Source of the DNA: Seison nebaliae
Lineage: Eukaryota
Assembly: GCA_023231475.1 (NCBI GenBank)
Contig: JALJEE010000449.1
Span: forward strand, 1 to 64,000
Direction: 5' to 3'
Length of the DNA: 64,000 nucleotides
Position 1 is the first letter of the stretch; each line of letters opens with the position of its first letter. Below the pieces are notes generated by a model. That model saw nothing but the letters and a program-made list of their open reading frames with translations. It had not been told where the DNA came from and did no database searches. The translations under genes were made by a program, and so were the position numbers. Below are positions 2,580 to 64,000 of the stretch, piece by piece.

Positions 2580-5500
2580 ATGAAGATAATTAATCGTTTT
2601 TCGATATTCATCTTCCTATCGATCATTGTCGCTCTCCAATCGATAACAGTCGATGTCGATTGGAGGAATCCGTCCGACAAATTACATTTCGAAGATAATC
2701 TTGTGATCGGTGTCACGGTAACTGGAATCGCACTCCCCTCCCCGACTTCTTTGATTTGTGCTGTACAAACACCACTCCACAAATATCATCAATTCTATTT
2801 AAGGAAAGTTTATAAAAGATCAGATGCAACGACTGCCGTTCCATCAGTCGCAATCAATGGAGAACGTACATATACAAACAAAATAAAATATTCGGTTGGT
2901 CTTTAAAAAGTCATCGAAATTTAAATCTTTTTTTTTGTACAGACGATTGTTGGAAGTTTCACTGTGGACGTCACATCCGGTAGATCGTTAAATTTCGATT
3001 TTGAAATGTATTTCAATGTGAGAATTACTTCATATGTGCTAAGTAAAACTTCTTTACTAGTCAGTCCAATTTATGTCACTTGTGCATTGGGCGAAGAAGT
3101 TTCCATGCAAATGATTGATGATATTACATTAGACTTTACCGATCTTTTAACGGTTTCTTATTTTATTTAAACATTTTATTTTTTATATTTAAATCATATC
3201 ATATAGTATGTTGGTTCGTTAACCCCTCCGAGTTACCATGTGGTTCCTGGACCTAAACATTCCGTTGGTGCTGGTAGTTATATCGATGTCATAGTCAATT
3301 TACGACATCGAAAATTTCTCAAACTCTTAACCATCAGAGGTTACGACAGTGTCTCCACGAAATTACGAGGAGTATATCGAATTCGAACTGGAAAAAATTT
3401 CCATTACGAACCGTTCAGTTCCGTTGCTGCTTATTGTTCTGGTACATGTCCCAGTCTAGTTCGTACCGATCGATATATCAATAATCATGGTTAACGGCCT
3501 TTTATTTTTAGTTGAAGATATGATTTTGTTACCATTTTCAGATAGAACTCGAGTTTTAACTGATAATACGATAACTTATCGTATATTTTATACAGTTCAA
3601 CCAACTTATATCCAACATGCTGTTTATCATTATGGTGTAACATTTAATGACGGATCGGAATTTAAGACGACTTATGCTGCTGCTTTGGGGCCACCATCTT
3701 CTTGTGACTTTAACGTTACATCGGATTATTTGACGGTGAGTGAAGTGGATGGACCGACTCAAGGTGTCTTCCCCGAACAAGTTCTCACCAATCATGTCAT
3801 TCGAACCGCTTTGCCAATTATGAAAACTGACTCCGACAAAACTGAGTGTATGGAATTATCTTATCGAATTATTCCAAATCCGTCATGTACGATTGAAACG
3901 TATTCATATCTCTATAAATATTACACATTTACACCCGTCCCGATTGTTATCGAAAATGTTTGTCTTCAGTTTTTATCAGATATTTCAAATATCATTTTAG
4001 AATGAAGTATTTTTGGATTACACAAATGTGCTGAAAACATACTCACTTCCTGTATATCATAGTTCTTATACACATTACGCTTTAGTGTTGAGATGTGAAG
4101 GTTAGTGAGAATTTGGTTTAAAAAAAAAATTAAAAATTTATCAGGAAACAATCGTGGTTATCGATTGGAAGGAATGTCGAAATCGACCGACGGTTTCCCT
4201 TATTACATCAATTTCACGAAAGATATTGATGTGGTAGACACACCCGATTATTCATTGATGACAGTGACGGTTTTCCATTTTCATTGTTTTGCTTATTATT
4301 ATTTTACCACTTTAACCTCATTTTAGTTGTATACACCAATTCAAACAATCATTACTGGTACTTATTTCGCAAGTCAAGCGGGTGTTGACGGACTTACGAA
4401 ACCGCCATCTCCCTACGATGTCCATTATATTCGAGTGGATATAGATGACAATATGTGGATGAAAGATTGTGAGTTGAAATTCGAGTTAACGACGGGGAGA
4501 GATGTTTTGTGGAAGAATATGAGAATTTATTGGACTGGTTCAAATATCAAAATCAGTTCAGATGCAGTTGAATGGACAATTAACGGTGTGAGAACTATAG
4601 GCAGATTAAAACTGAACAACATAGCGACACTTCGGGGATATTATTCTCCATATCCTTCTTCGTTCATATTTTTTTAAATTTTGAATTTAAACTATCTAAT
4701 TGGTATTTTCAGATATCATTCACAACTTATTCTTGAAATAACAATGGAAGTTAATCCCGCCAGTGACCTGCCATCGGCCGAACCGATCGAACGACCTTAT
4801 ACCATGTCGATGACTTGTCAAGGCATTTCTGTAGGATCCACTGTATCTGGAACTGCTCGAGTTGTCCCCAACTATATCATCCCACCAATGTCGATAGTTT
4901 ACAACTTATCTAAATTTCCAGTTAAATTCCATTTTATTTTAGGCTCAAAATGAATTCACAAGTTCGAAGATAGCGGCCATGTCTTCGATTACTTGGAAAC
5001 ATAAAGTGGTTACCGGTTCTCCAAACTACGATATTTGGTTGTCGTTTGGGAAATTTTATTTCCCAAAACATTTCTATACAGAGCGATTGCTGTTGAAAGG
5101 AAGTACAACCGGTAATGTTGAACAACACACTTGTTCTGCAGGAACTAAAAGTATCGGATTCTCTATGCCGGCAGCTGGTAGTCTAATTTATGGGACTGGA
5201 AATGACAGTTTGATTCCATATACAATGGATGACGCCATAAAATTTCAACGAGATTACAAAGAAATTGATGGCGATTACTTTACTCAACAATTCGTCAACG
5301 ATTTGGGATTTGCTATTTTTGTCAGTTCATAATTATCATCTTCTTCTTTTGAATTAGTGTAATTTGATGTTAATAATAGGAAATTATCCGTCATATGAAC
5401 GACGTGAGTATCAGGTTGAATTTATGTTTACGAATATGGTGAAGAAGAATTTGAAACCATCAATGGAACTATCTGTAAATTTCTATGACGCCGTTCTCAA

Positions 5501-8500
5501 AAGTCCAATAACTTTATCTGATTCGACCACAGTGGAAACAACGGAAAATTTAATTAATACAGTTAATTCTTTTGATGGAATTGAATACAAAAATAATTGA
5601 ATTTGCAGGAAAGTGAAGCACCATCAACTGTAACATCGAAATGGTTCGATGGAAATGAAATCTTTCCTGGAGAAACAAAAGTTTTACTTTTATGGACCCA
5701 ACTGAGTCCAGGTAAAGACTATTCGGAAATTGGCTTTTCTGTTGCTGTTGAACGTTTATCTAATTTTAATTTTAATTTCATAACAATATTCGAATATTAG
5801 CGAACCATTTCAGTGTTGTTGATATCATGCTGGTACAAGCAGGAATAAATGTTCCATGTATTACCGATTATATACCATCAGTGAGAGAGTTCGTATATAA
5901 AGACTTCAATGGTCAACCCTGGAGCACGTTAGATATTCCAAAAAAGAATTATATTATGAAAGAATCGATTCCTTTCAATAACGATGATAAAGTGATAAAG
6001 AAAGCGGTTATAAAATTCACAAACACCATAACAATTCCCAATCAATACGAATATGGTCATTCAAATAATTCGAACAACGCCGAACTGAATAAAGTTATTT
6101 GAATTCCATTAATAATTTCTATTCCATTAATAATTTCAATTTTCAGTTATATTTTGAAGTTCATATTCATGCTTTGGAAAGTTCCAATGTCGTTGATCTG
6201 ACGAAACAGGTCACTTTAGATTGGCATGGAACGCAACGGACACCGACGCTCAAGAAGAAGACTTCTCTCAAATCGAGTAATAAAAATGGGGAAATCTCAG
6301 ACGTCGTCATTGGAATTGCTGATAGTAATGATGCATGGAAGATAATAGAAGATATTCCATCAGTTGCAGTTGGACAATTACTGAACATGAGAATAAAATT
6401 TCGATATTCGGATAAAATAATTTCGAAAAATTATTATGACACGAGACCGATTACGGCCAATTTGCGATTTAAATTGACAACCGCAGTGGAAACCGTCAGC
6501 GAAGAACATGGCGAAGAAAGTTTACTCGATATCAAATCGATCAGAATTGGCGAATTGGGAAAGAATGTTGAAACGATCAGAAAAAATTATATTAATTCGG
6601 CCAACATACAATTTACCGTAATCAATGACGATACACCACATAGTCATACCGGTCTGGTGGATTGGTTCATTATCACTAATACGGAATTGAGTCATCGTAA
6701 TACGTTTATGGATGCGACGGATGAAGATGATGAGATAATAGTGGATTTCCAAGTGAAAGTGTCTGATCATTGGTCATACGCGAACGCCGAATCCACAAAT
6801 ACTTCGATTGGATTGAAAGTTCAGCTGAAAGATAAGGATAATGTTGTAACAGCCGTAGAAACTACCAAAACTGTAACTGTCACGTTGAACGATAACAAAA
6901 TCCCACAAATTCAAGTTGATGCAGAATTATCTTCACCAACTTATTTGGTGAAGTTCGTAATTTAAATTTATTAATTTTAATAATTTTTTCTTAAATTTTA
7001 AGTGAATTGATAAATTTGAATGTTAACCTGGAACATAAAACCGAATCGACGGCGAATGCTTATGAAATCGAAACTCGAATTCATGTTCCGTATCATCTCG
7101 CTTATAATACAACTTCATTAATCAAGGGACGGAATAATATCCAAACAGAAGTTGTTGACAATGAATATATCAATGTGAAAGTTAATTATAATTCATAATA
7201 AAATAATTAGTTAAATTTATAATATTATTATTTCCAAAGGTGAAATCACTTGTTCTTGGAGAGAAAATTAATTTCAGTGTTCTATTTATGATCGAAGAAG
7301 AGAAGTATATCAATTTAAAGGATAGAAGTACAAATGATGATAATACGAAATATTTGAATACCGATTTCTCGATCGATGTCATCAGTCATCGATCAATCGT
7401 CACCACATCAGAGTCGACCACAGTCATATTGGATGAAACGGAATTCTTCGAGGAGACCACCTTCCTTTCATGTAATATCACAACGACCTGTTAGGAAATT
7501 TTCAATGACGAATAAAATTTGATTTTTGTTGCAGTCAATTTTTATCAGGAATCAAACTCCTATAATTTGTGTTATGAAACGGCATCGGAATCTGCTACCA
7601 ATATTAACCATATGGGTAAAGTACAAACGAAACACGACACACCGGCATGGTTAGGAGATCAACCGGCGAACGATTATAATCATCAATATTTACAAGTTAA
7701 TAATAATTAAAATTTCTCTCATTCTTATCGATCAGGTGCAAATGGGATATAAAAAATTTAATGTTCAACGAATTAAATTGGAAATGAAAAACGATGACTT
7801 CCTACCAACGAGAGTTCTCGTTCGATTTACAAAGAATAATATGATACCGGTTTGGTATCCATCAACCACATCAAATAATCGGGATCGATATCTGATCGAT
7901 ATACCTGCAGGAAGAAAGGAATATTTGATTAATATCGTTGAAAGTGATGTGGATGGAGTTCGTGTTTATCCGATAATGAATGATGGAGAATCGATTCCAT
8001 ATTTCACTATCAAAGTTTTAGGCGTACCGATCGATGAGACAAGTTTTGAATTTTATTTTAAAGTTTCTTTTTCATAATTTTTTCAACAAGAGCTCGGTTG
8101 TAGAATGGAGAGGACGTGGTCTCGATTATTATTGACGAACGAGAAGAATTTAATTGCTTCCTGTATGAGATCTACATCGAAGTTATTTGAAAATTAAAAA
8201 AAAATTTTTTTTCAATTTTATTTTTAGTGATCCATCACAATGTTCGATATCGTTAGACAACGGAAATAAATGGATAAGTTTTCCTTCTTTTGTTTTTCAT
8301 CAATATTATTGAATCGAAATAATTCAGAGATAAATGAACATATTGTAAATCTACATTTTATCGATTCTAAATCGAACGTTGCGTCATGGAGCAATGGAAG
8401 AAGTACAGAGAATGAGAATATTTATGGGACGTTCGATGATGGTACGATGAAAATGAGAATTTCTCTTTATGAAGAAATGGAGAATCCGATTTTCTATGAG

Positions 8501-8820
8501 GAATTAAATCTATTACAAGATAATTTGGATGTGACTACTAATCTTTTCTCCTTCTCTGGTTATCTCACTGAACAATACGACAATCACTGGACAGCGGCTA
8601 CGAAACGAAAAAAACATATTCCTTTCAAATCCATGGTTTTTTCTTATCACCTATTTTTTAAAATTTACTATTAACATCTCATTTGTAGAGTGGGAAGACG
8701 ATGGATGAATTAAGTTCATATCATTTATCATACAATTCCACATTAATCGGTGTGGACGGTGATGGAATTAAATTGAAAAATGATGATGCCACTTGGGAGA
8801 AGATCGCGAACTGGTTCTAA
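2580..8820 (+). CDS. Large putative secreted protein (~1748 aa, 21 exons) with possible F5/8 type C (discoidin)-like domain near C-terminus; function unknown
   Basis: Signal peptide MKIINRFSIFIFLSIIVALQS; successive ORFs join in frame via 20 AT-rich GT-AG introns (2895-2942, 3153-3206, ~3454-3511 donor ambiguous, 3958-4000, 4101-4144, 4270-4326, 4662-4712, 4897-4942, 5325-5379, 5562-5608, 5754-5800, 6094-6146, 6953-7002, 7181-7239, 7490-7534, 7696-7735, 8043-8090, 8182-8227, 8278-8327, 8636-8688); spliced length 5247 nt is divisible by 3; ends EKIANWF* at 8820. PAWLGDQPANDYNHQYLQVQMG resembles the discoidin AW...QWLQVDLG motif. Confidence 0.75.
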
Positions 8821-9247: not shown

Positions 9248-11159
9248 ATGGAAGATTCTCAACGTGATTCAATGGAGGAAGTTGAAGAGAAGATGATAAA
9301 AGTTTATGTCACTTCCATTTCGTCTAGTAAGGACGTTCGAATGAATCAGCGGAAAATGTCTTATGTTCTCATTTCGAATAACATCGAATTTAAAGAGATC
9401 GATATTTCCGATCCATATTATGGAGAAGAGAAGGATCTGATGTGGAAACGTGTCCAATCGATTTATTCCGAATCCAATTCGGATGATAGTGGAAGTGAAG
9501 GTTGTACTCGAATTCATAAAAATGTCGTCACTCCTCAAATATTCAGTGATGGCAAATATTGTGGAGTTATTTGAATTTTTTAAAAATAATTAATTTTAAA
9601 TTATTATCATTTTATATTAAAAGGATTATCATTCGTTTGAAGACGCGATAGAGAACGATGAATTATACAAATTCTTATTCTTGGAAGAACCGGAACCGAT
9701 TCGGAATCCAAATTTAACTCCGATCGAAACATCTGTTAGATAATGAGAAAGAGATGCAAATTCCGTTCCATTCTAACTCGACATGTTTTCAGAACTAACG
9801 CAGAACTCCATTCCATATATGAAAGATTTCCTTTTTTTTTAAAAAAAAAATTATTCCACCAAATTCAATTCCTGTAAATTCTCATTCTTATTTTGAATAT
9901 TCAATTATTTCGATTGTTACTCATTTCTCAATTTGTTTGTCATTCACCTCTCACTTAACCTTCATCGTCTCTAACAAACTGTTTTATTGAATGTTTCAAA
10001 TATATCTAATATATTTTGAATTAATAAATGAAAGGAAAACGAAGAAGAGGAGAAAGAGAACGAAAATGAAGATGAAATTAAAAATTCTGATGATGAAGAT
10101 GAAATTAAGAAATCAGATGATGAAGATGAAATAAAAAATTCTGATGGTGAAGATAAAGAAGATGAAGATGAAGAAGATAATAAGGAGGATATGAATGTAT
10201 CAGACGAGGAAGAAGAAAAAATGGAAAAAGATGCGACAGTTAAAGATCATGAAGATGGTAGTGGTGATGATATTTCAAGTGGAAAAGAAGAAGATGATGA
10301 AAATATGACGGAGAAAAGAGATAGTGAAGAAGATGATGAAAATATGACAGAGAAAAGAGATAGTGAAGAAGATGAAGATATGACAGAAAAAAGAGATAGT
10401 GAAGAAGAAGAAAATTCCAGTGAAGACGAACAACCAACAGAGAAAGACGAAGAATCGTTAGATGGAAATGAATCGACGACTATAAATGAGATAGAGAGTG
10501 ACAACGATGAAGATAAGAGTGAAATTGATGCTTCTTCCATCCATGAAGATGAGGAAGAAAAGAAGAATGAAGAGGAAGAAGAAGTTTATTCGCGATCAAG
10601 ACGCCGAAGACGTGAATGGGCAAATGAAGAAGAAAAAGAGAGTTCAGAAGAAGAAGAAGAAGAAGATTCAGCTGATCATGAAGATTATGTGGAAGATGAA
10701 GATGATGATACTCCAAATCCACGTCTATCGACAATAGCGGAAGATGAAGAGGAAGAAGAAGAATCGAATCCTCGTTTAAGTTCCGATAGTAACAAATCGA
10801 GTAAACCAAGATTAAGTACAGAAGATGATGTCTCATCAATATTCGAACCAGATAAATCGTCGATAAAAGACGATGTGGAAATGAAGAAGGAAACGCCGAA
10901 ACGACGAGGTCGTTTTGATTCGGAAGAGAAGGAATCAGTCGAACCGAAAGAAGAAAAGAAATCGAACGATTCGTCGATAATTGAGGAGACGGTGGAGAAA
11001 CCGAAAAGAAGAGGACGATTCAGTTCGCCCGAACCAACAGAAGAAGTTCACGAAAGACCAAAACGTCAAGGACGTTTCGACGATGTGGAAGTACCGACCG
11101 ATGTGGAAAAAGTAGAAGAAACGCCAACTACGACCGGCCGTCGTCGTCGAGGATGGTAA
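9248..11159 (+). CDS. SH3BGR-family (thioredoxin-like fold) protein with long acidic C-terminal tail
   Basis: Exons 9248-9565, 9624-9734, 10035-11159. MIKVYVTSISSSKDVRMNQ...IEFKEIDIS...TPQIFSDGKYCG|DYHSFEDAIENDELYKFL matches SH3BGR/SH3BGRL; last exon is in frame with the E/D-rich ORF 10191-11159. Confidence 0.85.
10068..10410 (+). repeat. Coding tandem repeats in SH3BGR tail: ~27-bp unit x3 (EDEIKNSDD) and ~39-bp unit x3 (ENMTEKRDSEEDD)
   Basis: gaagatgaaattaaaaattctgatgat repeated ~10068-10150; aatatgacrgagaaaagagatagtgaagaagatgatga repeated ~10290-10410. Confidence 0.85.
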
Positions 11160-15104: not shown

Positions 15105-18100
15105 TCATGCGCATGATAATCGTTTGTTATGCCAATTCAACAATCGAAATTGATTATTTCTCAATGTTGTGTTGGTGGTGGATTGGAGTTGCTTAGGTTC
15201 CTTCCATTGATTAATTGGACAATTAACATTCTGATTAGAATTTCCTTTATAATAATTCTTCGACGACGACGATAATGAATCGAGCGTACTATGGAAAGCA
15301 ACTTTCGACATTGGCGATCGACTACATGTTCGCATATCCCAATCGACTAAAATATGAGGTAACATTAATGAGGAACGAGAGGGAATGATTCGATGTTTCG
15401 CCTCTACATAAGTAGTCGTTTTGTGATGAGGTTTATCGTCTTGTGCCGAATGGTCAACCTCCGAATTGTAGTCGAAGGAATAGAGACTCCCATCTGATTC
15501 ATGAGGCCTTGATGATTGTTGGCGTTGATGGTTGGCGCGCTTAACACAATTTACAGGCTCCTTAGATAATTCGATTACATCAGTATTAGTTGATTTGGTG
15601 ATTTTCTTTTCCTTCTTACGTAAGAACTGCTCTTTATTCTCACTGGAAACCGGTTCGTTTTTTTTAGTGTACATAGAAAATGGGAAAACATAAAGAATTA
15701 ATTCAAAAAACTTTTATTTCTCATGTTCTTACCAATTCTACTTTATTATCTTTCCATTAGAATTATCCGTCTTTCAAAACGAGGGGAATTATTATAAAGG
15801 AAATCGCACATAATCTCACCAGCTTATTTCCAGACACTAATACTTTAGATTTGAAGTACATTCCTCTAATTGGGAATGAAAAGAAGAAGGTAACACTTAA
15901 CATAGTTGGAAGCGAGTTGGAACGAGACTGAAACTAACACAATATTAAGTACTTTCTCCTTCAACAAATTCATCTGCTTGGACATCGTTCGATTCATTTC
16001 AACTTGCGAATGTAATTGTATTTCCTTCTCCTTCATATCATTTACTTGTCGTTCCAATTCATGTTGAACTCTCGAGAATTGTTCTTTCAATTTCACATAA
16101 TTCTTTGATATTCTCCCAGTTTTCTTTTCCAATTCCTGGTATTGTTTCGTCAGATTTCTCCTTACCTTAGTTTCTTTTATATTATCCAGCTGAGTCGCCT
16201 CATCCTTCACATTCTTCTCTTTTCTCGGACTTCTTAGTTCGTTTATGGAACATGCCACATTTTGAGTTGGAATCTTATCAGTTTGCAATTGTACATCATT
16301 CGTCTCTATGTGTACTTTCGTCGTCTTTGTTCGTTTGGTGAGCAATTGAGATAACTCTGCAGAAATTATTTCCCTCACAATTTCCGAATTATTCATGAGA
16401 GATGATCGTTCCAATTTATCTGTTGAGTCGTTGGCAGTGCAAATACATTTGCCCCTCCAATTACCAGATCGAGGATATTCATTACTAAAATAAAAGTAGG
16501 AAACAAAATAAAAGAAATGAACAGAATAAAAAGGAAATGAAAAAAAAATGTTGTACACAATTAATTGTGAACTTTAACAATCGAAATGGAAGGAAATGTG
16601 AATAAAATATATTTTGAGGAAAACGAGCCCTCAGGCATTTTATTTTTAACGGAATTTCTCTCATCATCTAATTGGATTGCCAATGTCAATAATGAAAAAG
16701 AATTTCCGAAATATACTCCGAAATAATAATAATGTCAATTATATAACACCATCGAATTTCTCTAACAATGTTTCAAATTTCAAATTTAACTAAACTCTAA
16801 AGGTTCGTTATTGTTGTTTGGAATAATTCTCTTCGAATCCTTTTCCACACTTTTCTCTTCCAGTTGTTGTTTTTGTTCGTTCGTCTCCGACAACTTTTGT
16901 TTTAATTGCCCCAATTCCTCTTCTAATTCGATTCGTTCTCGACGTTCTCTCTCAAGTAGATCCTTTATGTTAATCGTGATGGAGAATCGATTAATGAAGA
17001 AATGGAATTAGAACTTTCGTTTGTAATAATTCGTACTTCAATTCGGCGAATCGTTCTTGAGAGATTGTGTAATTCTCATTAAAGATCGTCGAACGATGAA
17101 GTTCATTCTTTCCATATTCGATTTGATTCACTTTCCCGATCGTTTGCATGAGAAGGTTAGAAAAGAATTCCTGATTCTTGTCAATTTCGATGGATAACTT
17201 CGAGAATTCTTCCTGTAAAGATAATGAATATTCATTCAATCTCCATTATTATCATTATCATCTAACTGTGAGAATTGACGAGACGATATCATTTATTTTA
17301 TGTCTTAGCGATTCTTCGTTGGACAGTCGATCTTCCTGATAAAGTAAATTGTCAGAATTTTGTTTCTTTCCCTATTTTATTTTTGAATAATAAATTCAGA
17401 TGATAAAAACGAACTTTAATTTCCTCATATTTCTTATCACGGAGAACATGTAAATTTACTTTCTCTATTTCACTCCATTGCGTCTCATCGTCCGTTGTGT
17501 CGATGACCGTTTTCTTCGAGGCACTCCCTCCTTTATATTTGTTTGGAGAACTGCTATTGTTTTGCTTCCTCGATCGATGACGAATTCGTCGTTTTACCGT
17601 ATCGGTACTTCGACCACATCGTTTGATTGGGGGAGAGGGCGTGTTGGGTATAAATTGTGCGGTTGTCTGAGCATTCGTGTCGTCTATGGACGAGACTAAT
17701 TCGGACGTCGCATTTATTATCGTACTAATATTAGTCAATTGTTGATGTGGTGGTGGCTGAGGAAGTGAAGTGGGTGATAACGGTGGAAGGTTCTTCCTCA
17801 ACGACAATATTATTGGTCGATCAGTGACTGAAATATCACCATATTCATCACCTGTCGTGGTGGCTGTAACGTAAGAACAACTTTGAACACCAGAATCGAT
17901 TGGTAATAATGATACAGGTTCTTTCTTATTCATATCGGTCATTTGACTGATTTTATTTTCTTTAAATTTATTTTGTTTTATTTTATTTTCTGAAATTGAT
18001 TCATTTTCAGAACTCTCAAAAATTGGCTCCAATGACTCTTTCTCCACAATTTCCAGAACGGCAGAACCAGTTCCGTCATTTGAATACGGCGAATAACTAC

Positions 18101-19137
18101 TACCGATATATGGCATGTCAAATAAATTTTCGCGATGTTCATCAATTCCACTGATAATCATATCTAGTTCCTTCGTTTCTTCTATTTAGGAGAATGATGG
18201 TGATAATGATGGAAATGAAGGAAATGAAAACGAGGGAAGTCATTGAAACGATTATTAATTTTCAGTTGTAATAAATCGTGTTCAAGAACATATTGTTTCT
18301 CACATGTCTGATTTAATTGACATGTGAGATTGTTCACAATCTCGTCTGCTAATACTGGTTGTGATTCCTTCAAAATATGATAAGGAAACTTAAAGTAAGA
18401 TTAATGGTAATAACTGTTACAATAACTTCGATTTCGTCTCGATTCGTTTCTAATTTATTCGGTTCCTTCTTTTTGCTCATTTCATTTTCTTTACCTTTAT
18501 TCATTATAATGGACAGAAGATTATATCTATGAGAAGGGAGATGGAAAATAAAATGAGAAATTGTTCATTAAAATTCACAAACTTCTCATTCGCTTCATTC
18601 ATGTCGTCGATCGTTGTCTCTTTTCCATTCAGTATTGACAGATTTGGCATTCGATATAAGATGTAATTACGACACGTTGTTCTCTCGTTGATTGGCGTGT
18701 CAATGATGGAAAGAGTACGAAGTGGGGAGATCTTAATAATTTGTTCGATCGAGAACCATGATGAAAGTTTCGTCGACTCCAAATACAATTCTCGTAACGA
18801 GGGAACATATCGATAGAAATCATATGGAATCTCAACCAACGGATTGACTAGAATGAGGAGAATTATTAAAATTAAAATTAAATTTTATTATGAAATTTTT
18901 ATAAAGTGGAATTATTAAATTTTAATAACATGATAAGTCTAAAAATTGCAAGATGGGAAAATCCAATCGATGAGGTAGATGTTCGATGAAATTGTCACGT
19001 AGATGTATTCGCTCTATATAATTCCCGTCGATGAGTTCGGTGGGGAGACTCTGTAATTTCTGATTGTTTCCGTTGAAAAGTTTCTCGTTCACAAAAGGAA
19101 TCAATTTATTACACTCGTCATTATCTTTCAAAGACAT
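15105..19137 (-). CDS. Multi-exon leucine-rich-repeat (LRR + LRRcap) and coiled-coil protein, possibly centrosomal/ciliary type
   Basis: N-terminal IERIHLRDNFIEHLP, LQFLDLS|FNPLVEIP, LRELYLESTKL, LRTLSIIDTPI...CRNYILYRMPNLSILNGKET; later exons coiled-coil (DLLERERRERIELEEELGQLKQKL, LTKQYQELEKK). Intron 1 18929-18848; later ORFs join by short GTT..AG introns; 3' exon junctions less certain. Confidence 0.7.
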
Positions 19138-19761: not shown

Positions 19762-20668
19762 ATGGTTCGTTATTCTCGAACGGTTGACAGCAACCGAGTG
19801 GTCAAAGCTCGTGGCAGTTATTTGCGGGTACATTTTAAAGTTAGTTAATTCTCCTACCATTATCAATGTTCAGAGACGGAATCTGATGAAAATATATCCG
19901 TGTTTCATCTGCATTCTATTGAAATGAAGACAACTGATTAACTGATAATTCCCTCATAATTCTCTCATATTTTTATGATAATTTTATTCGATCTTCAATT
20001 ATATTAATTTCCATCCTCTTTTCCATTAGAATACCAGAGAGGCGGCACATGCCATTAAAAAAATGCCGTTAGTTCGTGCACAACGTTATTTGAAGCACGT
20101 TATGGATAAGGTGGAAATCGTTCCATTTAAACGATTCAATGGCGGTGTAGGACGCAAAGCTCAAGTTACTTTTGTTTTTTATAAAAATTTTTAAATTAAT
20201 AATTATAATTTTTCCAGTGTAAAAATTGGAATTGTAACCAAGGTAGATGGCCAGCCAAATCCTGCAAAGTCTTATTGGAATTATTGAAGATTGCGGAAAG
20301 TAATGCCGATTATCAGGTTTATTTAACCATTTATTTTTCCATGAATTTTTAATTTAAATATTATTAATTTTTAGGGAATTGAACAAGATAAATTAGTGAT
20401 TGATCATATTCAAGTGAATCAAGCTCCGAATATGAGAAGAAGAACATATCGTGCCCATGGAAGAATTAATCGTTAGGGAATTTATTAGAGACGGATGGAA
20501 ATAATTAACTTCTTCTCTTCAGCTTTTATTTCTCATCCATGTCATATTGAGATGATTCTTGGTGAGAACGATACGATTGTGAGTAGTAAGCCGCAGCAAG
20601 ATATGCCAATTAAGAAGAAGAAGGAATCGCGAAAGAAGATTAAACGACAAATGATGATGGGAAAATGA
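19762..20668 (+). CDS. RPL17: 60S ribosomal protein L17 (uL22), 5 exons
   Basis: Exons 19762-19839, 20030-20164, 20218-20316, 20375-20471, 20523-20668 translate [40 protein letters not shown]...[31 protein letters not shown]...[53 protein letters not shown]; missed by the ORF track. Confidence 0.98.
19878..19952 (+). ncRNA. Intronic C/D box snoRNA with a U18/SNORD18-like antisense element to LSU rRNA
   Basis: In RPL17 intron 1 (190 nt, much longer than the other three): terminal stem GGAAT(19878-82)/ATTCC(19948-52), C box cTGATGA 19883-89, 11-nt TCCGTGTTTCA 19897-907 complementary to conserved 28S UGAAACACGGA, C' ATGAAGA 19924-30, D box CTGA 19942-45. Confidence 0.8.
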
Positions 20669-26596: not shown

Positions 26597-29500
26597 ATGA
26601 CGGAATGCAATATTGAAATTAGAGAGACAGGAATGTTATTCTTTCCAAATGTCATTCGACGATCAATGAGGAAAAGTGAGACATTCGCAAATCATTCTCA
26701 ATTGACAGAAACGGAAGAACAAATAGCCAACTTCCCCAACGACATGAATTGTTTGACGAGAGATGAGGATAACTGGCAACCTTCCTCCACCACCACCACA
26801 ACAACAACAACAACTATGATGGATAATTCGAAGAAAGATGGTTTAATTGATGATGAGATGGATCGTGAAGAAATCTATCAGAATTTGCAAAAAAGTTCCA
26901 TTTCTTATATGATTTTGTGTTTGAATTTTATAATGATCGTATCTGGATATGTTAATAAGAGAAGTTAATCGGTTATGCCATTATTCGATGTAATCGTAAA
27001 TTGAGCGTCGTTTAGCGGTTATTAGTCGTCGAAGAAAGGAAACTTCGTCGAATCGATCAATGTCTTATGTATTTGGGAGTTATAATATTGGGAGAGTATC
27101 GACGATGTATATCCTCTTCCCAATGGAAGGGGAACAGGAAGAAGATATTTTTATGAAAAGATTTCTTGCTGCGGTCGTTTTACTGCATTTCCTCATTGAA
27201 TATTTCAAATCTCTTCTCCCTCTCTCTTCCCTCCGTCTTACAAATTATTCAGAAGGAATCATTTCGGTCAACATATAAATCATAAGGGCGAAGCATGTTA
27301 CCCATCTCGGTTTGGAGGTGACGGTGATAATTCCACGCTTCCCATTTGCTCGAATAAACAGGAGCGTCTTATGTGTGTGTCTCATTCGATTCGGTTCGAT
27401 TTAAGACAAAAGGGAAATGACATTATTCTTTCGTTTCCATTAGAAGAATTCTGAATAAACAGAAGATGATTCCCATGTTCCACATACGTACCATCAAATG
27501 TATGGTATTTAAGTGAAGGAAAATCATAAGATCTCAAGCAATCATTAACCAAGTTCGACGACTGATAAATGACCCAGAATTGGGAATCCTCCTCCCACTC
27601 CCCAACGGACTTACTCCTCCGTTTCGTATCGATTGATGTAGATTGTTTTCGTATTTTTAGAATTTGTCGAATTTTTTTATGGAGTTCTTTTGTACTACAA
27701 TTCTGAAAAGAAAGAAAGAAAGAAGTGGAACGATAAACGATGATTCCATTCTTATTATCAGATGATGGAAGAGAGAAGAGGCACCTGTTCTTAATCGTAT
27801 GTTAATTGTGTGCTAGAATTGATATTTATGTTTCCTTTCATTTGGGGAAGGCAATGCTTATGTCGAATTGCATCGTTAGAGTTGCGGTGTGAAATTGATG
27901 ATGTTTCCACTTTCATAAGGACGTCCTTGAATGCGAACCAATTATGGAATACTCATTCAGATGATCCATCTCCATCCTCCACTAATAATCATCATATGAG
28001 TACGGGAATTGGCAACTGATGACTTATTATTCGGAAATTTTATTATATCATCATTTTGGAAACATCATTTTGCGATATCCGAATTATTGTTCCCCATTTG
28101 ATGAATGTCGAAGGATGATATGTTGAAAAAATTCTTTTTATTCTCTCCTAAATTAACCTTCGTCATTTGATTAATGATGGAATGTAATTACCGTAAAACG
28201 GTTTTTTAATTCGATTAATTGAGAGTGAAAGATCGAGGGAGAATGACAAAATGGTTGAGACATCACATCTAAAATCTTTTCAATTTCTTTCCTTACAGTC
28301 CCATCGATAATTGAAGACGATAATTATGAGGATCGATCGATAACTGATGAGAAAGTTGATGATAAGGAACGACTGTTTACTAGATTTAGTGGTTGTGAAA
28401 GTAGTATCGTATCGACCACGAAAAACAATTTAGATCATATCAACAAACGGATATCAGGAACGTGCCGAGCAGAAAGCGTTGATCTGAAGAAATGGAATAA
28501 TTGTATTAGTCGACGGAATTGGAAAGAGATTTCCGTACAACCCAATCGGCTCTCCTTATTAACAATTCAATCAACTCCTTCGCCGATAAGTTCCTATTTC
28601 TCCGAGAACGAATTGCTCAGTGAGCGATATCATCGACAAAGAACTAAACCACTTACGCCATATCAGATTCCGGAAGTTAGTACAATTCAACATTTATTTA
28701 TATACACCACATTTTGCATGATGAACGAATTGACCACGATTGAAGAAATTTATTCCATCTCAATGGATTCATCGATTATTTCCTTTCCACATTTATTCTC
28801 CTCTTCCGGTAATGATGATGTTCTCTTAATCAAATCGAAAACAATTTAGTCGTCTTCCCATTCTTACAATTCCATTATTCTTTCCAGATACTTTCTGCAA
28901 TTAAAATATTAAACCGCAACTATCTCCCTAAACACTAGTATTACGTATTCCTCCTCCAATTATCAATTTTACTTTAGAATAATTCGCTTAAATGGACAGT
29001 TGTTGTTCGATTTCTATTCCACAAAAATTTGTTCTTCTCATAAATGTTCTGTAGAAAAACGATAATCATTTAATTATCTGATGTGGTAGATGATGATGAT
29101 GTTGGATACGTGTAGTATTTAGATGGAAATCCAAATTGGAGTAAGGATTTGTATGTTCTCGAACAATGATCCTTTTTCCATTATACTTTTGTTCGTCCAT
29201 TTCTATCGATAATTCTTTAGATGATGTGGGTTGAATGTGGTAGTCAATTTGGTTGTGAAGAAAGTAAAGATTATTGATTTCATTCATTCTTTATGATTCC
29301 TCCATTTAATAGTTTAATACTATTCATCAGGAACACGTAAATTTACATATGGAATTATTCCAATAAAATTACACCTCCGAAAATTTGTTTTTTATGAAAT
29401 TTTATTAATTCTTTCTCCTCACTCAGTTTACATGTGAAATTGTGTGAACTATGAATATAAGTGTGTTTGTGTGTGGAATGTGAATATAAATGTGTGTGTG

Positions 29501-32500
29501 TGTGTGTGTGCTCGTGTCTGTCGACATATAAATGAATGAAAAAGTTCAATATAAAACGATTAAGTATTTTGTTTGGAAACATATCACAAACTCTTCACAA
29601 TATGGCGATCATAATTAGTTCTTTCTACTTTTGAATTCTTTTCCATCAATCCTCTCCTCTCATTTGTCGTCATCTTACAACTTAATGGATCATATTCGTT
29701 CTCTCACTAATTCCAAAGGAGTGAGTAGTTGCGATTCTTTCGTCACATTTCATGAATGGATTTTTACTTATCGTGTACGTGTAGTGGGAGGAATACCGTC
29801 GGTTAATGTCAGGTGACTATTCCTTTAATTATCAAAAATTGTCTGACGAAAAGGCAGGTTGTTCTTACGAAAATGGATGAATAATTGATGAAGACTTCGT
29901 AATTTACTCAATTACTCCATTCTACGCACACAAGCACAAAAACCTGATTTTGGGAATAAGTCAAACCAAAAGAAAATTAGCCGTTCGCAAATCATTTTCC
30001 GTTGGAGACCAGTCCCCTCCATACATTGGAAATCTTAACAGATCGACAATACTTTTCTAAATTGTTTAGTTTCTGACGTAACTTAATGGGAAAAGAAAAA
30101 AAGTTTATTGAAGATTTTCACTCGATATCAAGGAAATTCTCTTATTCATTCAACAACTTCTCCCTACAATTTTCTATGTTTATATTCACTGTTTATATCA
30201 ATATCTACAATCATCATTTTCCTATATACTCTATCAAATATGGAAAGAAACGGAGAATTGGGAAGTGTCTTTTTGGACACTTTCAAGTTGTCCGTAAGAA
30301 AGTTGATTTTTAATCGAACTAAAGATAAACGAGAAATAATTAAATGAAAATTAACTGAATAAAATTAGTAAATTGGACGAAAATAGAATTTGTAGTAATT
30401 TCAATAATGTCCGGACAGATCTCCCAATCATCTATCAAAAAGGACAGTTCTCAATTCTCATTGTGAACTTTTCTGCATTTTTTTCTCCTTAAATTTCTCA
30501 ATTCTAATCTGCCAATATTGAGACACATAAATTTTCAAAATGTTATTTTAGGCATCTCACAACTAGTACAATCTTCCCAATAGTTACAATAGTATCCAAA
30601 AATTCTGCCTAATTTTACAACACCAATTTATAGTGGCAAAAACCAAAATCGGTCAATTTACGATTATAAATTTAAAAAATTAAAAAAGTCCAAGAATGTC
30701 CCAAATTGGGATTGACAATTGTCCGGTTTCGTAGGAGCTTGGAGGATTGACAAATGTCCGTTAATCATATCGACATCATCTATTTTCATTAGATGATTTG
30801 TAACACTTACGGTTCTGTTCAACAAGGTTATGATTTTCTCCAAATCAAGTATTTACGTTGCCACTTGATTAGTGAAAGAATGTCTTGAAGAAAATTTTTT
30901 CTGAATTCATTCCATATTTGATCATTCTATTCGCCTCTTCACAAATTTCTCATAGAACGGTTGGTAAGAATACCAATAAAGTAAAGTCAATAAATTGAAT
31001 TTCTCTCTTGATAATACAAATAGAATCGGAGGTGTACTATTCACATAATTATTTCCGAATGGGAATTCATCCACGATTCAGTCCACCAACTTCTGCACTG
31101 CACAACAATAAGGAAGAATTGTATTATTATCTTCTTAAGGAATGTTGTGGAGAACGTCAATTATTAAGAGAAGTAGAATATGCATATTGATTATGAGGGA
31201 AAGCGGAAGTTATATCAAATTATAATCAGAACTACAAGACGACAATTCCTCTGTCTTCATGTCGATTACGTCAACCTATGGCTAATTTAGTTGGAGATAT
31301 TATTCAGTTTTCTCATCAGTTTCCATCCCAATACTTCTCTGCAATCGGAGAAGAAATATTTTCTCCACCTTTTCTTTAAGAGAAACAATTCCATTCATAT
31401 CACTCTATTAACCGATAAATATAATTTTAATTTTTTATTAAAGAATTAATTAACAAAGGAAAAAAGAATTAATTGTAAGTAAAATTTATTAATGTTTCCA
31501 AGCTGATCTATTCAGATTCTTTTCGTTAACTGTGGGAAACTGATATACCATCTAACAAATTTCAGTCAGTACCATGCTATGTGGAATATATTTCCGTTTC
31601 TCATTTATCAAAAAACGAACGAAGTAAATGGACCAAAAAGAATAATTGATAATTTTCTCCAGTTATCCTCCCGCTTTCTCTGTGGTTTTCTTTTTATGTT
31701 TAGTAATTTGTATGAATAAGAAGAAACTATAAATCTTTCAATGTTTCAAAAAAAAAATAAAGGGATTTTCTACTTAAACAAACTCCCACTTTCTTTTCAA
31801 CATACGAAATCATTCATCTTATCCCATTTTGGCCTTTTCTTCATTATCATTTTTTTTTGTCTCCAAATTTTCTCTCCATATCCCGAATTCGATGAATTTC
31901 TATAGAATTCATTAACATTCGTGACTGTGGAGATGAGAAAGTGAATTGACGCATCGAAATTTATGAGATGAGACCCAAAAAAATGAGATGATAACAATAA
32001 GTGAATTTGATGGATTTTGATGAAAAAAATTAAATTCAAATTTATGAGACAATTCTGAAAAGAGTCCTCGTTTATTATTCATAGAAGAAATGAATATCGT
32101 CAAATGATGATTGATTGTTCATGAATCGTTCAACCATTTGATCGAAATAAGTTGCGGCAAATTGTCTTTTCTTTCTTCTTTCTATTTATCTATTCAATGA
32201 ACTCCACTCCATCCATTCTCTAACACTTCTGGAAAATAAAGGTCTTCTAAACATTAATAGTAACGAACATGATCTAAATCAACAACATGAATAATTTCAA
32301 CATTAGATGATAATTTCTTTTGTTCTAAAAATTCTAGTGCCAAACCAATTTGTTTGGTAAATGCAACGAGAATGAACAAGTGAATTTATCAACACCTTTA
32401 TATGAATCACTGAGTGTTTTACACAACTCTTCCAAAACCCATTTAACAAACGATTCTACAATGATTACATCTGAATTCCATCAATCGCCCAATCCATCCA

Positions 32501-34463: not shown

Positions 34464-34494
<31 letters not shown>

Positions 34495-37400
34495 CGTTCA
34501 TTGGAACTTCGTTTGTTTGTCCAATGTGAATTGAAAGAGAGAGAGAGAGAGAGGGAGAGAGAAAGAGAAAGAGAATGAAAACAACCACAACATATTCATA
34601 AAACGATTATGTCAAATCAGATCATTCCATCTAGATCATGAGAAGGAAGAAAAATTTGTTTTTAGTCGTTTAAGAGACGAAAGTAAATTCTCTTGATGTA
34701 TATCGATACATGTTACAGGTAATAATGGAAATGAGGAAGACCAGATTAACGGTGGCATCGTACGAAAAGGAAAAGAAGTGGCACTTCTTCCCATTTGTGT
34801 TTGATTGAATTAGGTTGATGAGACTAATCGAATTAATTTCGACACGACATTCAATTTCATAATGGAAACGATTAATCCTTTTAAATCGTCAAATTTACAC
34901 TCATATCAATAAAGAACTGACATCCATTCAAACCGATATTACAAAGAGATATAATCGATAATTATTAGTTTTCTTAAAAGGAGTCAAAGCGTCAAATCAT
35001 TTCGATTAACTGAAGAGGCAAACGTAAAATCAGTTGGGAGATATTTGTTGAGAATGAGGTAGAAGAGGAGATGATGTACTTCTAAAAAATATGTCTGTTA
35101 ACAAAGAAAAACTTATTCTCTCCCATCATACACACCACCAACTCTCATTATGATTATCTTCCTGTTCTTTCCGTTTACTTCGATTATCGTTCATTGGAAC
35201 ATCATTCATCATCATCCTCCACCACTCTTCCTCACTCGGAGGAGAAGAAGAAGAAGATCAATTTGAACTCAATGAGAAAAATGTTGAAAAGGAGAAGTTG
35301 AGTGAATTTTGTAAAATTGTTCGCAAATAAATACGGTGAGAAGTTTTAGGAAGCACCGGAAATAAGGAAGTTAATGGAATGGAGATAGAACGAAAATTTT
35401 TTCTGCAAAATAAATTTTTTTCTTGACATAATTTTTCTTCTTCACATAAATTGTCAATGAAAAATTTATGATAGTTATGAATTAATTCTCTTAATTTGAT
35501 GTGTTGCAGCATAAAGAAATCGATCTTGACATCGGTGATAGAATTGGAGGAATTCATGAGAAAATTTGCACCGAATGTCAATTTTGTTTAGATGATTATT
35601 TCATTCGATTACGACATCTTCGTCCAGCTACTGATCAACACTTGAACGATGAGGAGAATGATGATGAACAATTGAATTCATTCTCTTGCTCTTCAAACGG
35701 AAACAAACGAATAAATCATTCGGATTGTTGGTCCGTCTTGAGAGACGAGAAATTGTGGTGCAATTATTATTTTGATGCGATTCAACTACAACGAAAGTAT
35801 TTTATGTTGATCAATCTTCATTTGCCATTCAAAGATACTGGTGTTGTCTTCTTCATCAAACGAAAGGAATCGATGCAACAATATGGTGTTTATGTGAAGA
35901 AAGTGGAGAAACAATCGGAGGCGGAAGCGAATGATCTTCGTGAAATGGATGAACTCGTCCTCTTCAATAACAAACAAATCGACAAGATGTCCTTACAACA
36001 ATTACAATCGTATTTTATCAGTTTCTCTTGTCGAACTGATATGACGCAACCGATTCAAATCGGTTTAAAAGTGGTAAGGTTAACTATGTCACATTCATTT
36101 CCATTAGGCAACGATTCTCTTCCACATCCATTCCTCTATGTGTCTCTGATTCAACAGAAAAAATAATTCGATTCATTATACAATTAGGTGGGGAAGTGTT
36201 TTTTAGCCATGATATAATTGTAAGGAAAAGAATTTGCCGTCTGTTAACCAGAAATAATAAATAGAATATGTAGATTTTCAGAAAGATTTTTTGTAAAGAT
36301 GAAACAGGATTAATCAGTTATTCTTCTTCTTCTTCTTCTCATCCAGATCTCGAGCACCACCAAGCACTATGAGCAAATCTGAAATTAAGCAGATTAATTT
36401 GGAGAATGAACAAACTGGATGTGGCGGAACAATGAGGAAGCCGCCCACCGATAAGAAATCTCTATGGAATGCCAATGACAATCGTCAATCTCTCCATCGC
36501 ATCGATCAAACAAAAGTCAATTCGAACAGTAATCGAAGTAGTGGAATTAGTTGTAATGGATCCTCTTCCACCAATTCTAGCATCAACTGTGCACACATGA
36601 ATGACAATGTCAGTTCGAATGGAAGTGATACAAATTATGATCATTACGGCAACTATCAACATGTGGCGTCGAAAACGCCTAATAATTACACTGCTTATCG
36701 TTCTCAATTGATGAATAGGACACTAATGAAAAAAGATGAATCGTTTACTGATCAGAAGTTCAATCGAAAAATTCGAACTGAAGATAATGCTTATGACGAA
36801 TTACCATCATCCGAATACAATCATTCGAGTAACATGTTAATTAATCAAAAGAAAACAAATACTAACTACTTATCATCAATACCGAATAATTCGAGGAGAT
36901 ATGCTTTCCAATTCAATCATCCATCAATCAATTCATCACATAATCGTACATCGAACTATCAGAAACAACAACAACAACAACAACCAAATACTTCCAGATC
37001 CAAATCACTCGTCACTTCAATAAATCAGAAGAATATTTCGAGACCTAATCGAATTAGAAATCAATTGTTCGACAATACCGTCAATTCAAATAAGAACGAT
37101 ACAACAATCTCTTATGCGTGTGTGAATCGAATATGTGACGAGAATCATCGTCAGACACCCGCCAAACAATCGATAAATGCGAATAAGATTCCCATTCAAA
37201 AATCTCAATTTTTACAGCCAGTTAGTTTGTTCTCTAATTATCATTCATATCAATTCATATTTTATCCGTCTCAAAACGGAAATAAATTGAAATTCAAATA
37301 ATGGGAAGGATATTCCGTTTTTTCCGAAGAATTTTCCTCCTCTTTTTTTTACAATTTAAATACTTTTCCTACGAGACATTATTTCTCCATTGAGTAAATG

Positions 37401-51184: not shown

Positions 51185-53695
51185 TCACAAACATTTATAA
51201 ACTTTCCTAATACGGCCACATTTCTCACATTCGTAACGACAACACCAAATAAATCGACAATTACATTCTTCCTCGACATGTTCGTACGAACTGATAATTC
51301 CTCGACCGCAACAAACGTCCTCACAAATCGGAATTTCCACCCGATTACTTTTCGATAACGGAAATTTCTCTCGGTCATTTATCGATTCAATTAATTGTAT
51401 TCGAACGAATTGTCTCGGAATACATCTCAGTGATCTCACCATTGAGGTGGAGGTCAATGTCACTGATGGTTTTCCATCAGTAAAATAAATTTTCATTTCT
51501 TTATCGTCTATTTTACGTTTTGTTCGATGTTTTCGAGTGAGAGTAGTAGAAGAATTTCCTTCTCTCATCGAATGGTTGTGGAAGAGTATTTCTGTCACAT
51601 TTTCAAAAACATGAACTGAATCGATATTCCGTCGTTGTCTCACATGTTGTCGTAATCGATGGAGATTCTGTCGATTTCTGATGACTATTCGACCGAATTT
51701 CTTTTTCTCTTTTCCCTTCCTCGAATTACTTTTGAGATGATTCACATTATTATGACGATATGTTCGTTCATTAATTCGATGATTCCGAACGATAATTTCT
51801 GATGATTCTTTCCTCTTATTTTTCTTCTTGTACATATATCGATGCATATCTAACGAAGGCTTCCCACAACTATGTTCCTTCACGTTCATCGTTTTACTCT
51901 CCTCGAAATAAATAAATTCATCTCGAACGTTATCCAATTCATTTCGTTTGTTTCGTTTCATCGACTCATCTTTCCTCGCCCAATTGAAGCGAATGGCGAA
52001 AATTTGAGCAAATCTCACAAGTTGTCGACGATTTTCCGATCTGGGTCTCCGTAACATTCCTCGTTTCATCATCAATCTTCCTTTCGGTATCACTTTTTGA
52101 CGTAATCTCAATCGATGAGATAATCGAACATGATACGAATTAATCGTTCGTTCCATCAACGAATTCGCTATCAATTCAAACGAGGGAGATTGGAGGAAAC
52201 ATTTCATCTGATCATTCGGACAATCAAATCCTGAATCGTCATACGAAAATGGTTCGATATATTCGTTATATTTCATCAACGTATCATTCGTTTTCATTGT
52301 ATCAAATAATCTCAACGATTGAACACAACTACAATTGACGGTTGTCATCGATAATAATTCCTGATAAAAAAATTAAAAAATAATGAAAAATAATTAATTA
52401 TAAAAATTAAATAAATAATTGAAACTTTATTAGCCAGTTCGATGTTGTGTAAATTCATTTCTGCCTCTTGTATTCTTCGTTCGATATATGTCGTTAATAC
52501 CGATTTGATGTTCACCATTTTCTTGATATTTCCCAGCAGTATGGATGGTGGTGATCGTTTCCGTTTAAATGATTGTTGACGGTTTTTACCGAATGTCGAA
52601 CTATCCGAATATTTCCGATTTCTAATGAAAATTCTTGAATTTTTTTGTCGTTTCACTCGATATGGCATATTCATTTCTTTCCTGCCATTCACTTCGTTTT
52701 TTTTGAAATGACGAGAGAGAAGATGGAGATGTTCCTTCTCCTCCAACTCCTTCGTAATCTCTTTCATATATAAATGATTTTTGTGTTGCTTATAAATTTG
52801 TTTGAACATCGTTTTTTGTTCGGTGTACATGTCTTGGAAGAATGCATGAACAAATCGTTTGATGAATTTCAAATCATCAGAACATGTTATTTCCGGTATC
52901 AATAAACTGTCTTGATATACGTCCTGATATTGTGACGACGTTGTTAAACATGATCCACAAAGATCATTCAATTTCTGCTGTTTACAATACTCCATTAATG
53001 TATGCATAACTGAGGAAGTGAGAATTGAATTGATGAAAACTAATTCTTTCGAATTCCTGTAAAGAATCTCCCCAAATAAATCGGACGAATTGAAAATTTG
53101 ACAATTCCATGTTACACTTTCATCATTTATCGATCGCATCGATCTCATTCGACCAAATTGCTCCCATAATCGTTGACAATGATTGACTGCCCATGCTACC
53201 GAATCCACCAAAAGATTCGCCCAAACATTCTTAGGGGGAAATCGATCGACTGATTTGATCGATCCCAATAGTTTATTCGATTTCTCACATAATAATTCGA
53301 ATTGGAATGGAGATAAGAGGAAATAATTTTCAACAATCATCCGAATTTGAGAGGGCAATATTCGACTGTCCTTTACTAGACTATGAACTTTCGATGATTG
53401 ACGAACATTTCTGACAATGAAACGGTCGTTTAATTTCGAATTTTTGTTACTCAATTGATGATATCGTTTAAGGAACATATCGGTGGGTTGACATATTTGT
53501 TGTTCGAACAAATATGGATTGTGATTAATTGAATTATGATATAATAAGATACTCCTAGAAAATGAATTTGACGGAAAATTAAAAAATCATCAAAAATGAT
53601 ATTAACCACCATGGTTTCGTTTTGCCGATACATGACGTTGTTGAGATGAGAATGTAAAAGAAAACGATTAATTTGAAATTCATTTTTCCACTCAT
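51185..53695 (-). CDS. Highly divergent, enlarged Wnt ligand (~797 aa, 3 exons); subfamily not assignable by eye
   Basis: Exons 53695-53607, 53554-52426, 52360-51185. Signal peptide MNFKLIVFFYILISTTSCIG then PW|WSIL; HCQRLWEQF..WNC..FGEILYRNSKELVFINSILTSSVMHTLMEYCKQQKLNDLCGSC; CSDDLKF; MNLHNIELANK; C-terminus CEDVCCGRGIISSYEHVEEECNCRFIWCCRYECEKC...YKCL is the canonical Wnt index finger. Confidence 0.93.
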
Positions 53696-62461: not shown

Positions 62462-62481
62462 CACTAACTAACTAACTAACT
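62462..62481. repeat. (CTAA)n short microsatellite
   Basis: actaactaactaactaact seen directly; reverse complement of the GTTA repeat at 34464. Confidence 0.75.
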
Positions 62482-63491: not shown

Positions 63492-63982
63492 ATGAAACTT
63501 CTATCAAAATTACAAATACTATTTTTCATCATATTCTCTTCGATTGAAGTGAATTGTAAAAACCGTTTGACCAATTCCTCTAAACCTTTTTGTCTGTATC
63601 ACATTCTTTCTATCAGACGATGAATTACATATCGGATCATTCAATATTCAAGTACTCGGTACGAAGAAAATGGCGAATGCAGATGTGGTGGATGTGATTA
63701 TCAAGGTTAGAAAAAGTGAAAATAGAAAATCGTTAAAAAACCGTCGAAAAAGATATTGAGACGATATGATTTGGTTTTGATTCAAGAAATTAGAGATACA
63801 TCTGATACAACTGTCCCGAAATTATTAGAATTACTTAATCGGTTAATAATATCATCTTTATTCTATGAATATGGTTTTCTTTCAGAAATGATGGAATTCG
63901 TAAATATTCCGCAGTCGTTTCTCCCCGATTAGGACGAACAAATAGCAAAGAACAATACGCTTTCATTTTTGATATGAATAAA
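63492..63982 (+). CDS. Deoxyribonuclease I family secreted nuclease, 5' partial (runs off window end)
   Basis: Exons 63492-~63564, 63617-63705, 63753-63841, 63886-63982: signal peptide MKLLSKLQILFFIIFSSIEVNC; LHIGSFNIQVLGTKKMANADVVDVIIK|ILRRYDLVLIQEIRDTSD...LLELLNR|NDGIRKYSAVVSPRLGRTNSKEQYAFIFD match DNase I motifs FNIQ, RYD...QEIRD and LGR..YKEQY. Missed by the ORF track. Confidence 0.93.
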
Positions 63983-64000
63983 GTTATTATATTAGAAAAA

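Follow-up and report, generated by a model that had tools for sequence, protein, structure and literature searches.

The stretch examined here is a 64-kb window of one contig (JALJEE010000449.1, positions 1 to 64,000) of Seison nebaliae, a marine rotifer of the order Seisonacea, within Gnathifera, and the system in question is the signal at the 5′ ends (donor sites) of its introns. All Seison data come from this window. Introns were reconstructed from DNA only, using public protein models, open reading frames (ORFs), homology, and a donor-blind finder, i.e., a self-trained semi-Markov model that requires GT...AG ends and gives zero score to donor positions +3 to +6. The curated set consists of 56 introns in eight genes on both strands. 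All 56 have GT...AG ends, joined frames were open in seven of the eight genes (the seven that were joined), and the median intron length is 53 nucleotides (nt). T occupied +3 in 55 of the 56 introns (95% confidence interval, 0.90 to 1.00), which bears out the statement in an earlier note on this DNA that nearly all introns in eight genes on both strands start with GTT. Across the 10 genes modelled in the window, 55 introns fall in 28,086 nt of coding sequence, or ~2 introns per kb. Among the 48 short curated introns, lengths divisible by three form the smallest class (11, compared to 15 and 22 in the other classes).

The gene at 2580-8820 (forward strand) encodes a protein of 1,750 amino acids and has 20 introns of 40 to 59 nt (2895..8688). 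Public model P0070 mapped onto it exactly, and all 20 donors are GTT; the 19 of 20 counted previously was corrected by this mapping. The finder also placed a GTT donor at all 20 introns, the fourth having a second GTT candidate. The protein is probably secreted; five of its exon ORFs gave no Pfam match, and a search with one exon matched only Seison's own protein. The SH3BGR-family gene (9248-11159, forward strand; Pfam PF04908) has introns in 9566..10034, at 9566-9623 (GTTATT; finder posterior, 0.98) and 9735-10034 (GTTAGA; 1.0), with an open joined frame, and its product ends in an acidic C-terminal tail about 375 residues long. On the reverse strand, an LRR/coiled-coil gene (16485..18929; Pfam LRR_9) has seven curated introns, all GTT (finder, 0.84 to 1.0); one further donor, either GTT at 18426 or GTA at 18420, is ambiguous and was left out of the count.

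RPL17 (19840..20522, forward strand) has donors at 19840 (GTTAGT), 20165 (GTTACT), 20317 (GTTTAT), and 20472 (GTTAGG), all of them the best-scoring joins against a hidden Markov model (HMM) of 36 homologues. The public RPL17 model, P0001 (19416-19840, forward strand), probably has a wrong 5′ end with three extra GTT introns; by the homologues, the gene starts at about 19763 and runs as a single exon to 19839. The Tiam/still-life RhoGEF gene (26895..38924, forward strand) has 13 introns, 12 of them GTT, onto which public model P0076 mapped exactly. Six of its junctions were informative for homology, and five long introns have the public model as their sole support. The exception, CAG/GTAAGA at 32967..33012 (the slash marks the exon-intron boundary), is flanked at its GT by CAG on the exon side and AAG on the intron side and thus has a full canonical context. 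It scored 50.7 bits against the HMM, compared to 26.8 bits for the next donor, and is also present in the public model. This donor is real, as is the earlier count of 12 of 13 with a single clear GTAAG exception.

The RasGAP-domain gene, mapped by public model P0226, begins with a single low-complexity exon of about 4.5 kb (44186-48656, forward strand), followed by six short introns (48657..49484), all GTT, the same count as was made before the mapping. Five of the six were also called by the retrained finder (0.83 to 0.99), and the first was called at 0.94 in another run. In two public isoforms, alternative acceptors at 48730 and 48736 make a difference of 6 nt. A canonical-looking CCG/GTAAGA lies unused, according to the gene model, in a RasGAP exon (48800..48810, forward strand), 65 nt before the used AAA/GTTCCA. 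The Wnt gene (51185-53695, reverse strand; Pfam PF00110) has about 800 codons, compared to the 305 positions of the Pfam profile, with long basic and low-complexity insertions. Its two introns (52361..53606) have donors at 52425 (GTTTCA; finder, 1.0) and 53606 (GTTAAT). The second has a GTG alternative at 53609, 3 nt upstream, to which the finder gives 0.76; we preferred the GTT on the basis of what we take to be a Wnt N-terminal motif. Finally, a gene that we presume to be DNase I-like, and that gave no Pfam match in the one exon scanned, has two introns (63706..63885, forward strand) with donors at 63706 (GTTAGA) and 63842 (GTTAAT), assigned from frame closure by eye. Its first intron is ambiguous (GTA near 63556 or GTT near 63565) and was not counted.

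Further rows were dropped before the count of 56 was made. These were the three GTT introns at the 5′ end of the public RPL17 model, which clash with the homologues; the two ambiguous donor pairs given above (18426/18420 and about 63556/63565) and, in the LRR gene, a last intron near 15950, also ambiguous; a row at 63984 in the DNase I-like gene, where the window ends and the sequence may be exon; a GTT at 11313 with one support only (finder, 0.8); and finder calls at 35474 (GTT) and 40602 (GTA), which conflict with a public model or come where an intact ORF ends. Scoring the Wnt donor and the three omitted ambiguous donors all as non-GTT would bring the GTT share to 54 of 59. Genes with at most one intron stand amid these intron-rich neighbors: a LicD-family gene (489-2273, forward strand), RPL34 (40591-41090, reverse strand), and a gene at 11298-12914 (reverse strand) that has no Pfam match and whose product is presumably a receptor-like multi-pass membrane protein.

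Three lines of evidence bear on the donors. First, four public S. nebaliae protein models map onto genes of the window; the RPL17 exon is 100% identical to the public Seison protein, and the models of the 2580-8820, Tiam, and RasGAP genes match letter for letter, with GTT at 20/20, 12/13, and 6/6 donors, respectively; these models are not independent of a trained predictor. Second, the first run of the donor-blind finder gave GTT in 18 of 18 introns at a posterior of >0.7 and in 29 of 32 at >0.5. After retraining, it gave GTT, among short introns, in 34/34 at >0.9, 42/44 at >0.7, and 43/47 at >0.5, with a posterior-weighted GTT share of 0.86. The two non-GTT calls above 0.7 were a GTG near the Tiam GTA exception and the Wnt GTG that lies 3 nt from a GTT. 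When the +3 base was swapped in memory to A or to G, the finder still chose 34 and 30 curated donors, respectively, compared to 34 originally; thus, it has no bias toward T. Third, every frame-keeping GT-AG pair within 45 nt was scored against HMMs built without Seison, for RPL17 (36 homologues) and Tiam (34 homologues). Homology chose GTT at 9 of the 10 tested junctions: all four in RPL17 and five of the six informative ones in Tiam, the sixth being the GTAAGA exception. One of the five GTT-winning Tiam junctions had no rival pair, and two of the eight scored, 32526 and 38879, were not counted because they lie in poorly conserved sequence. Of the four genes whose junctions had earlier been described as fixed by protein homology, this scoring covered RPL17 and Tiam.

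One alternative is that the universality of GTT is an artefact of T-rich introns, of hand-picking, or of predictor bias. GTT makes up 0.40 of all GT dinucleotides in the window, and the predictor behind the public models is biased to GTT, since the three likely false introns that it gave RPL17 are also GTT (a bias that hints, weakly, at having been learned from the genome at large). Against this stand the in-memory swap, homology at 10 junctions, and the difference between the T share of intron interiors (0.484) and that of +3 (55/56; P, about 1e-16). A comparison with relatives bears on the same point. Among metagenome contigs with a rotifer-like RPL17 alignment, we found 12 loci, and the 8 whose best RPL17 matches were Rotaria or Adineta proteins (76 to 87% identity) were treated as likely bdelloids. 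Near-copies aside (L001, L003, L007, and L008), four distinct loci are left (L002, L004, L005, and L006); L005 gave no finder calls, and L009 to L012 lacked a bdelloid best match. The relatives compared are therefore likely bdelloids only. With the same finder at >0.9, 59 donors were called in these loci, of which 47 had A and 9 had T at +3, and the difference from Seison (34/34 versus 9/59 GTT) was highly significant (Fisher's exact test, P = 2e-17), although the GTT background is higher in the likely bdelloids (0.445) than in the Seison window. An artefact is thus extremely improbable. Near-universal GTT donors in the window are real and far above chance, and this near-fixation is absent from the likely bdelloid relatives.

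The likely bdelloid loci are similar to the window in AT content and intron size (about 55 nt), and their donors are indistinguishable from those of Seison at −3 to −1 and at +7 to +9. The share of G at +5 is equal (19/56 in Seison and 21/59 in the likely bdelloids), and A at −1 is as common (28/56 and 25/59). At +5 overall, the two differ (P = 0.013 for the curated set and 0.0003 for the finder set), with A giving way to pyrimidines in Seison; +4 and +6 show the same shift more weakly. Since looseness past +3 is common to the likely bdelloids, the flip at +3 is the special feature of Seison. The previously proposed view of the +3 preference as lineage-specific and selected, not compositional, is supported by the 47 of 59 GTA donors at similar AT content and by the scarcity of T at the neighboring +4 position in Seison, where it falls below background. 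The likely bdelloid donors, from L002 and L006, are themselves weak, with G at +3 in 1 of 59, G at −1 in about one third, and mostly A or G at +5.

The donor consensus in Seison is AAR/GTTAGT and is loose past +3, with 24 hexamers among the 56 donors, the commonest being GTTAAT (8/56). In the exon, A is found at −2 in 35/56, and −1 is A in 28/56 and G in 18/56. A is enriched at +4 (28/56), whereas T (18/56) is below the 48% intron background. At +5, G occurs in 19/56, compared to 5.8% in intron interiors (a 6-fold enrichment; P = 1.5e-10), and A (17/56) is not above background; at +6, T is found in 34/56 and G in 5/56 (not enriched; P = 0.22). Positions +4 to +6 had been described as degenerate; they are indeed loose but, given the enrichment of G at +5, are not free of signal. 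Five tests for dependence between donor positions gave no significant result. At the 3′ ends, the sequence before the AG is pyrimidine rich (71% T at −6 and −5). The acceptor has A at −3 (AAG) in 12 of the 56 curated introns and in 7/34 of the finder set, compared to 4/59 in the likely bdelloids, so the 3′ splice-site rule has possibly been loosened as well. For the branch point, TT[AG]A was present in 44 introns versus 34.4 ± 3.3 in base shuffles, and CTAA was not enriched (nine motifs tried).

A purine at +3, the usual U2-type consensus, was seen in 1 of the 56 curated donors. Minor (U12-type) donors have been exemplified by GTATC and ATATC types (PMC7367187), and none of the 24 hexamers was of these types. 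The introns appear to be ordinary major-spliceosome introns, some at old positions, with +3 converted across the gene set.

In the usual model, as set out by Roy and Bowser (bioRxiv 10.1101/2022.06.08.495308), the U1 small nuclear RNA (snRNA) pairs its arm ACUUAC with GUAAGU. One way to accommodate GTT would be for a canonical U1 to pair one base downstream, in a GUUAAGU-like shifted register. The frequencies of A at −1 and at +4 (28/56 each) fit such a shift, as does the rank of GTTAAT as the commonest hexamer. However, the shift predicts G at +6 and A at +5, and the reverse was seen, with +5 G enriched and +6 G and +5 A not enriched, while A at −1 is no commoner than in the likely bdelloids. 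Because +5 G is enriched and +6 G is not, the donors keep the normal register, with +3 turned from A to T. We also compared used with unused GTT sites in the 10 modelled genes (1,645 GT sites, 55 of them used) by the area under the receiver operating characteristic curve (AUC), which was 0.757 for the normal U1 register, 0.661 for the U6 box, and 0.591 for the register shifted by +1. We consider the shifted register very unlikely; the donor logo argues against it and fits the previously proposed idea of a U1 variant.

The introns might also be recent copies of a mobile element ending in GTT (an introner), or the bias might be local to the contig. The count does come from one contig, and none of the four Seison RPL17 introns occurs in the likely bdelloid copies of that gene. 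On the other hand, an all-versus-all comparison of the 56 introns found only A/T-rich matches of 13 to 23 nt, terminal inverted repeats were not in excess in these introns (6.3 versus 6.2 matches), and only 10 of the 56 come after an exonic AG. Moreover, eight genes on both strands agree, and the RPL17 intron positions at 20165 and 20472 are common to L012, a distant and unplaced eukaryote locus, in which the donors at these positions are GTTGGT and GTAAGT. Two shared positions suggest that the new signal is present in old introns, and this speaks against an introner burst. Such a burst, or a local bias, is therefore highly improbable.

What, then, caused the change at +3? Our prediction, to which we give about an even chance, is that the base of U1 snRNA opposite +3 changed from U to A. 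The U1 pairing arm would then read ACUAAC in place of ACUUAC, a match for GUUAGU without any shift of register. Donors with A or G at +3 would carry a mismatch, tolerated only where the other positions pair well, as in the canonical context of the Tiam exception. An unchanged U6 could also contribute, since its G44 faces +3 and could form a G-U wobble there, and the 15% GTT minority of the likely bdelloids could have served as a bridge. A U-to-A change opposite +3 would predict a near-fixed +3 U with A at +4 and G at +5 kept. Near-fixation at a single position, beside −3 to −1 and +7 to +9 bases and a +5 G share like those of the likely bdelloids, speaks for it. A precedent exists in Entamoeba, the only lineage with +3 U donors that the literature search brought up, for which a matching U1 change is reported (bioRxiv 10.1101/2022.06.08.495308). 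Canonical-looking sites lie idle in modelled exons, according to the gene models (CCG/GTAAGA at 48803 and AAG/GTGAGA at 47721). Suggestively, GTGAG is not depleted in the 28,086 nt of modelled Seison coding sequence (25 occurrences versus 18.5 expected), and it is absent from the exon pieces of the likely bdelloids, which total 20,649 nt (0 versus 2.4 expected). An Rfam scan of the 64-kb window returned five chance-level matches and no snRNA.

A first rival leaves U1 canonical and has +3 U selected at the hand-over to U6, through a wobble with U6 G44 made strict by changes in SNRNP27K, SNU66, or PRP8. In its favor, +3 faces U6 G44, which A or G is described as contacting only weakly (PMC11732430); better U6 pairing has been noted for the GUUUGU donor of Entamoeba (bioRxiv 10.1101/2022.06.08.495308); and METTL16 and SNRNP27K, rather than the sequence of the snRNAs, have been linked to the yeast switches at +4 (PMC10581693). 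However, the depletion of T and enrichment of A at +4 are the opposite of what a U6-box-optimized donor would show, the U6 box was a poorer discriminator of used and unused GTT sites than the U1 register, and a wobble pair would be a weak basis for 98% fixation. We regard this explanation as unlikely, though one to be reckoned with. Alternatively, both snRNAs could be canonical, with a changed protein of the U1 small nuclear ribonucleoprotein (U1C, LUC7, or a U-rich binder of the TIA-1/Nam8 type) that reads +3 U and prefers pyrimidines downstream. The move of +4 to +6 from A to pyrimidines relative to the likely bdelloids would fit, the U1C of Entamoeba is reported to be highly diverged (bioRxiv 10.1101/2022.06.08.495308), and Seison is reported to lack about 35% of metazoan BUSCO genes (PMC8351084), so its spliceosome may have been reshaped. 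The downstream shift is nevertheless weak beside the near-fixed +3, and +7 to +9 show no difference. A protein reader is, in our view, rather improbable.

Several results weigh against a changed U1. Donor-like motifs are strongly depleted from exons under a plain synonymous shuffle, but under a stricter null, in which the next base is kept, this depletion mostly fades and was not taken as main evidence; among the 16 motifs tested, A[AG]GTTA was found 3 times versus 7.2 expected (P = 0.038), and GTTAG was not depleted (7 versus 7.2). No compensation between G at −1 and G at +5 was seen among the donors (Fisher's exact test, P = 1.0). The pyrimidine shift at +4 to +6 hints at a wider preference for U than one base pair would give. 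In other lineages in which the +4 preference has changed, U1 is canonical, as described for 227 Saccharomycotina and 9 outgroups (PMC10581693) and reported for Thecamonas and Micromonas (bioRxiv 10.1101/2022.06.08.495308), so that snRNA compensation is the exception in general. Finally, the Seison evidence is one 64-kb window and DNA alone. Taking all of this together, we hold the full scenario, in which a one-base change of U1 was followed, genome-wide, by the conversion of tens of thousands of introns, ancient ones included, from GTA to GTT, to be a tentative reading with a little less than an even chance.

The question behind this case is how a signal common to thousands of introns can change in step with whatever reads it. 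Most transformed donors described so far belong to intron-poor protists and yeasts, and compensation by an snRNA is reported only for a few amoebozoans. An intron-rich animal with a near-fixed +3 U beside relatives with +3 A and a GTT minority offers a before-and-after pair that can be traced intron by intron. If the scenario is true, Seison would be the first animal in which U1 and donors have coevolved genome-wide, and it would break the rule that massive intron loss must come first; if U1 is canonical, an unknown U6- or protein-level reader of +3 would be implied. Gene finders and splice aligners that rely on a standard animal donor model would get genes of the Seison lineage wrong. A literature search, thin on subscription journals, turned up no description of near-universal GTT donors for Seison, for rotifers, or for any other animal. 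Genome and mRNA sequencing of S. nebaliae has been published (PMC8351084); the accessible text of that paper uses "intron" twice and "snRNA" never and contains no donor analysis.

Several known systems invite comparison. Likely bdelloids resemble Seison in having introns of about 55 nt, with G at −1 and at +5 in about one third of donors and loose +4 to +6 positions, and differ in having A at +3 (47/59, with T in 9/59). The Saccharomycotina, like Seison, show a lineage-wide A/U switch of one donor position (PMC10581693). However, theirs affects +4 while U1 and U6 stay invariant, and it is attributed to the N6-methyladenosine status of U6, whereas Seison has switched +3 and kept A at +4. The amoebozoans Mastigamoeba and Physarum are described as having a one-base change of the U1 arm that matches the changed donor base, but opposite +4, and Physarum is said to retain standard U1 copies too (bioRxiv 10.1101/2022.06.08.495308). 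In Entamoeba, according to the same preprint, GUUUGU is found in 88 to 90% of introns and GUUUGN in 97 to 98%, the U1 arm reads ACAAAC, and homogeneous donors in general are tied to intron-poor genomes. Like Seison, Entamoeba has +3 U in nearly all introns, in the normal register and with +5 G kept. In contrast, its hexamer is fixed, whereas Seison fixes +3 only, with A the commonest base at +4, GTTTGT in 3 of 56 donors, and two dozen hexamers in use; its genome is intron poor, whereas the Seison window has ~2 introns per kb of coding sequence; and its U1 change is reported, whereas that of Seison is predicted only. Seison thus works like the +3 U donor of Entamoeba yet, because it has no fixed hexamer and its gene set is intron rich, lies outside that type as described.

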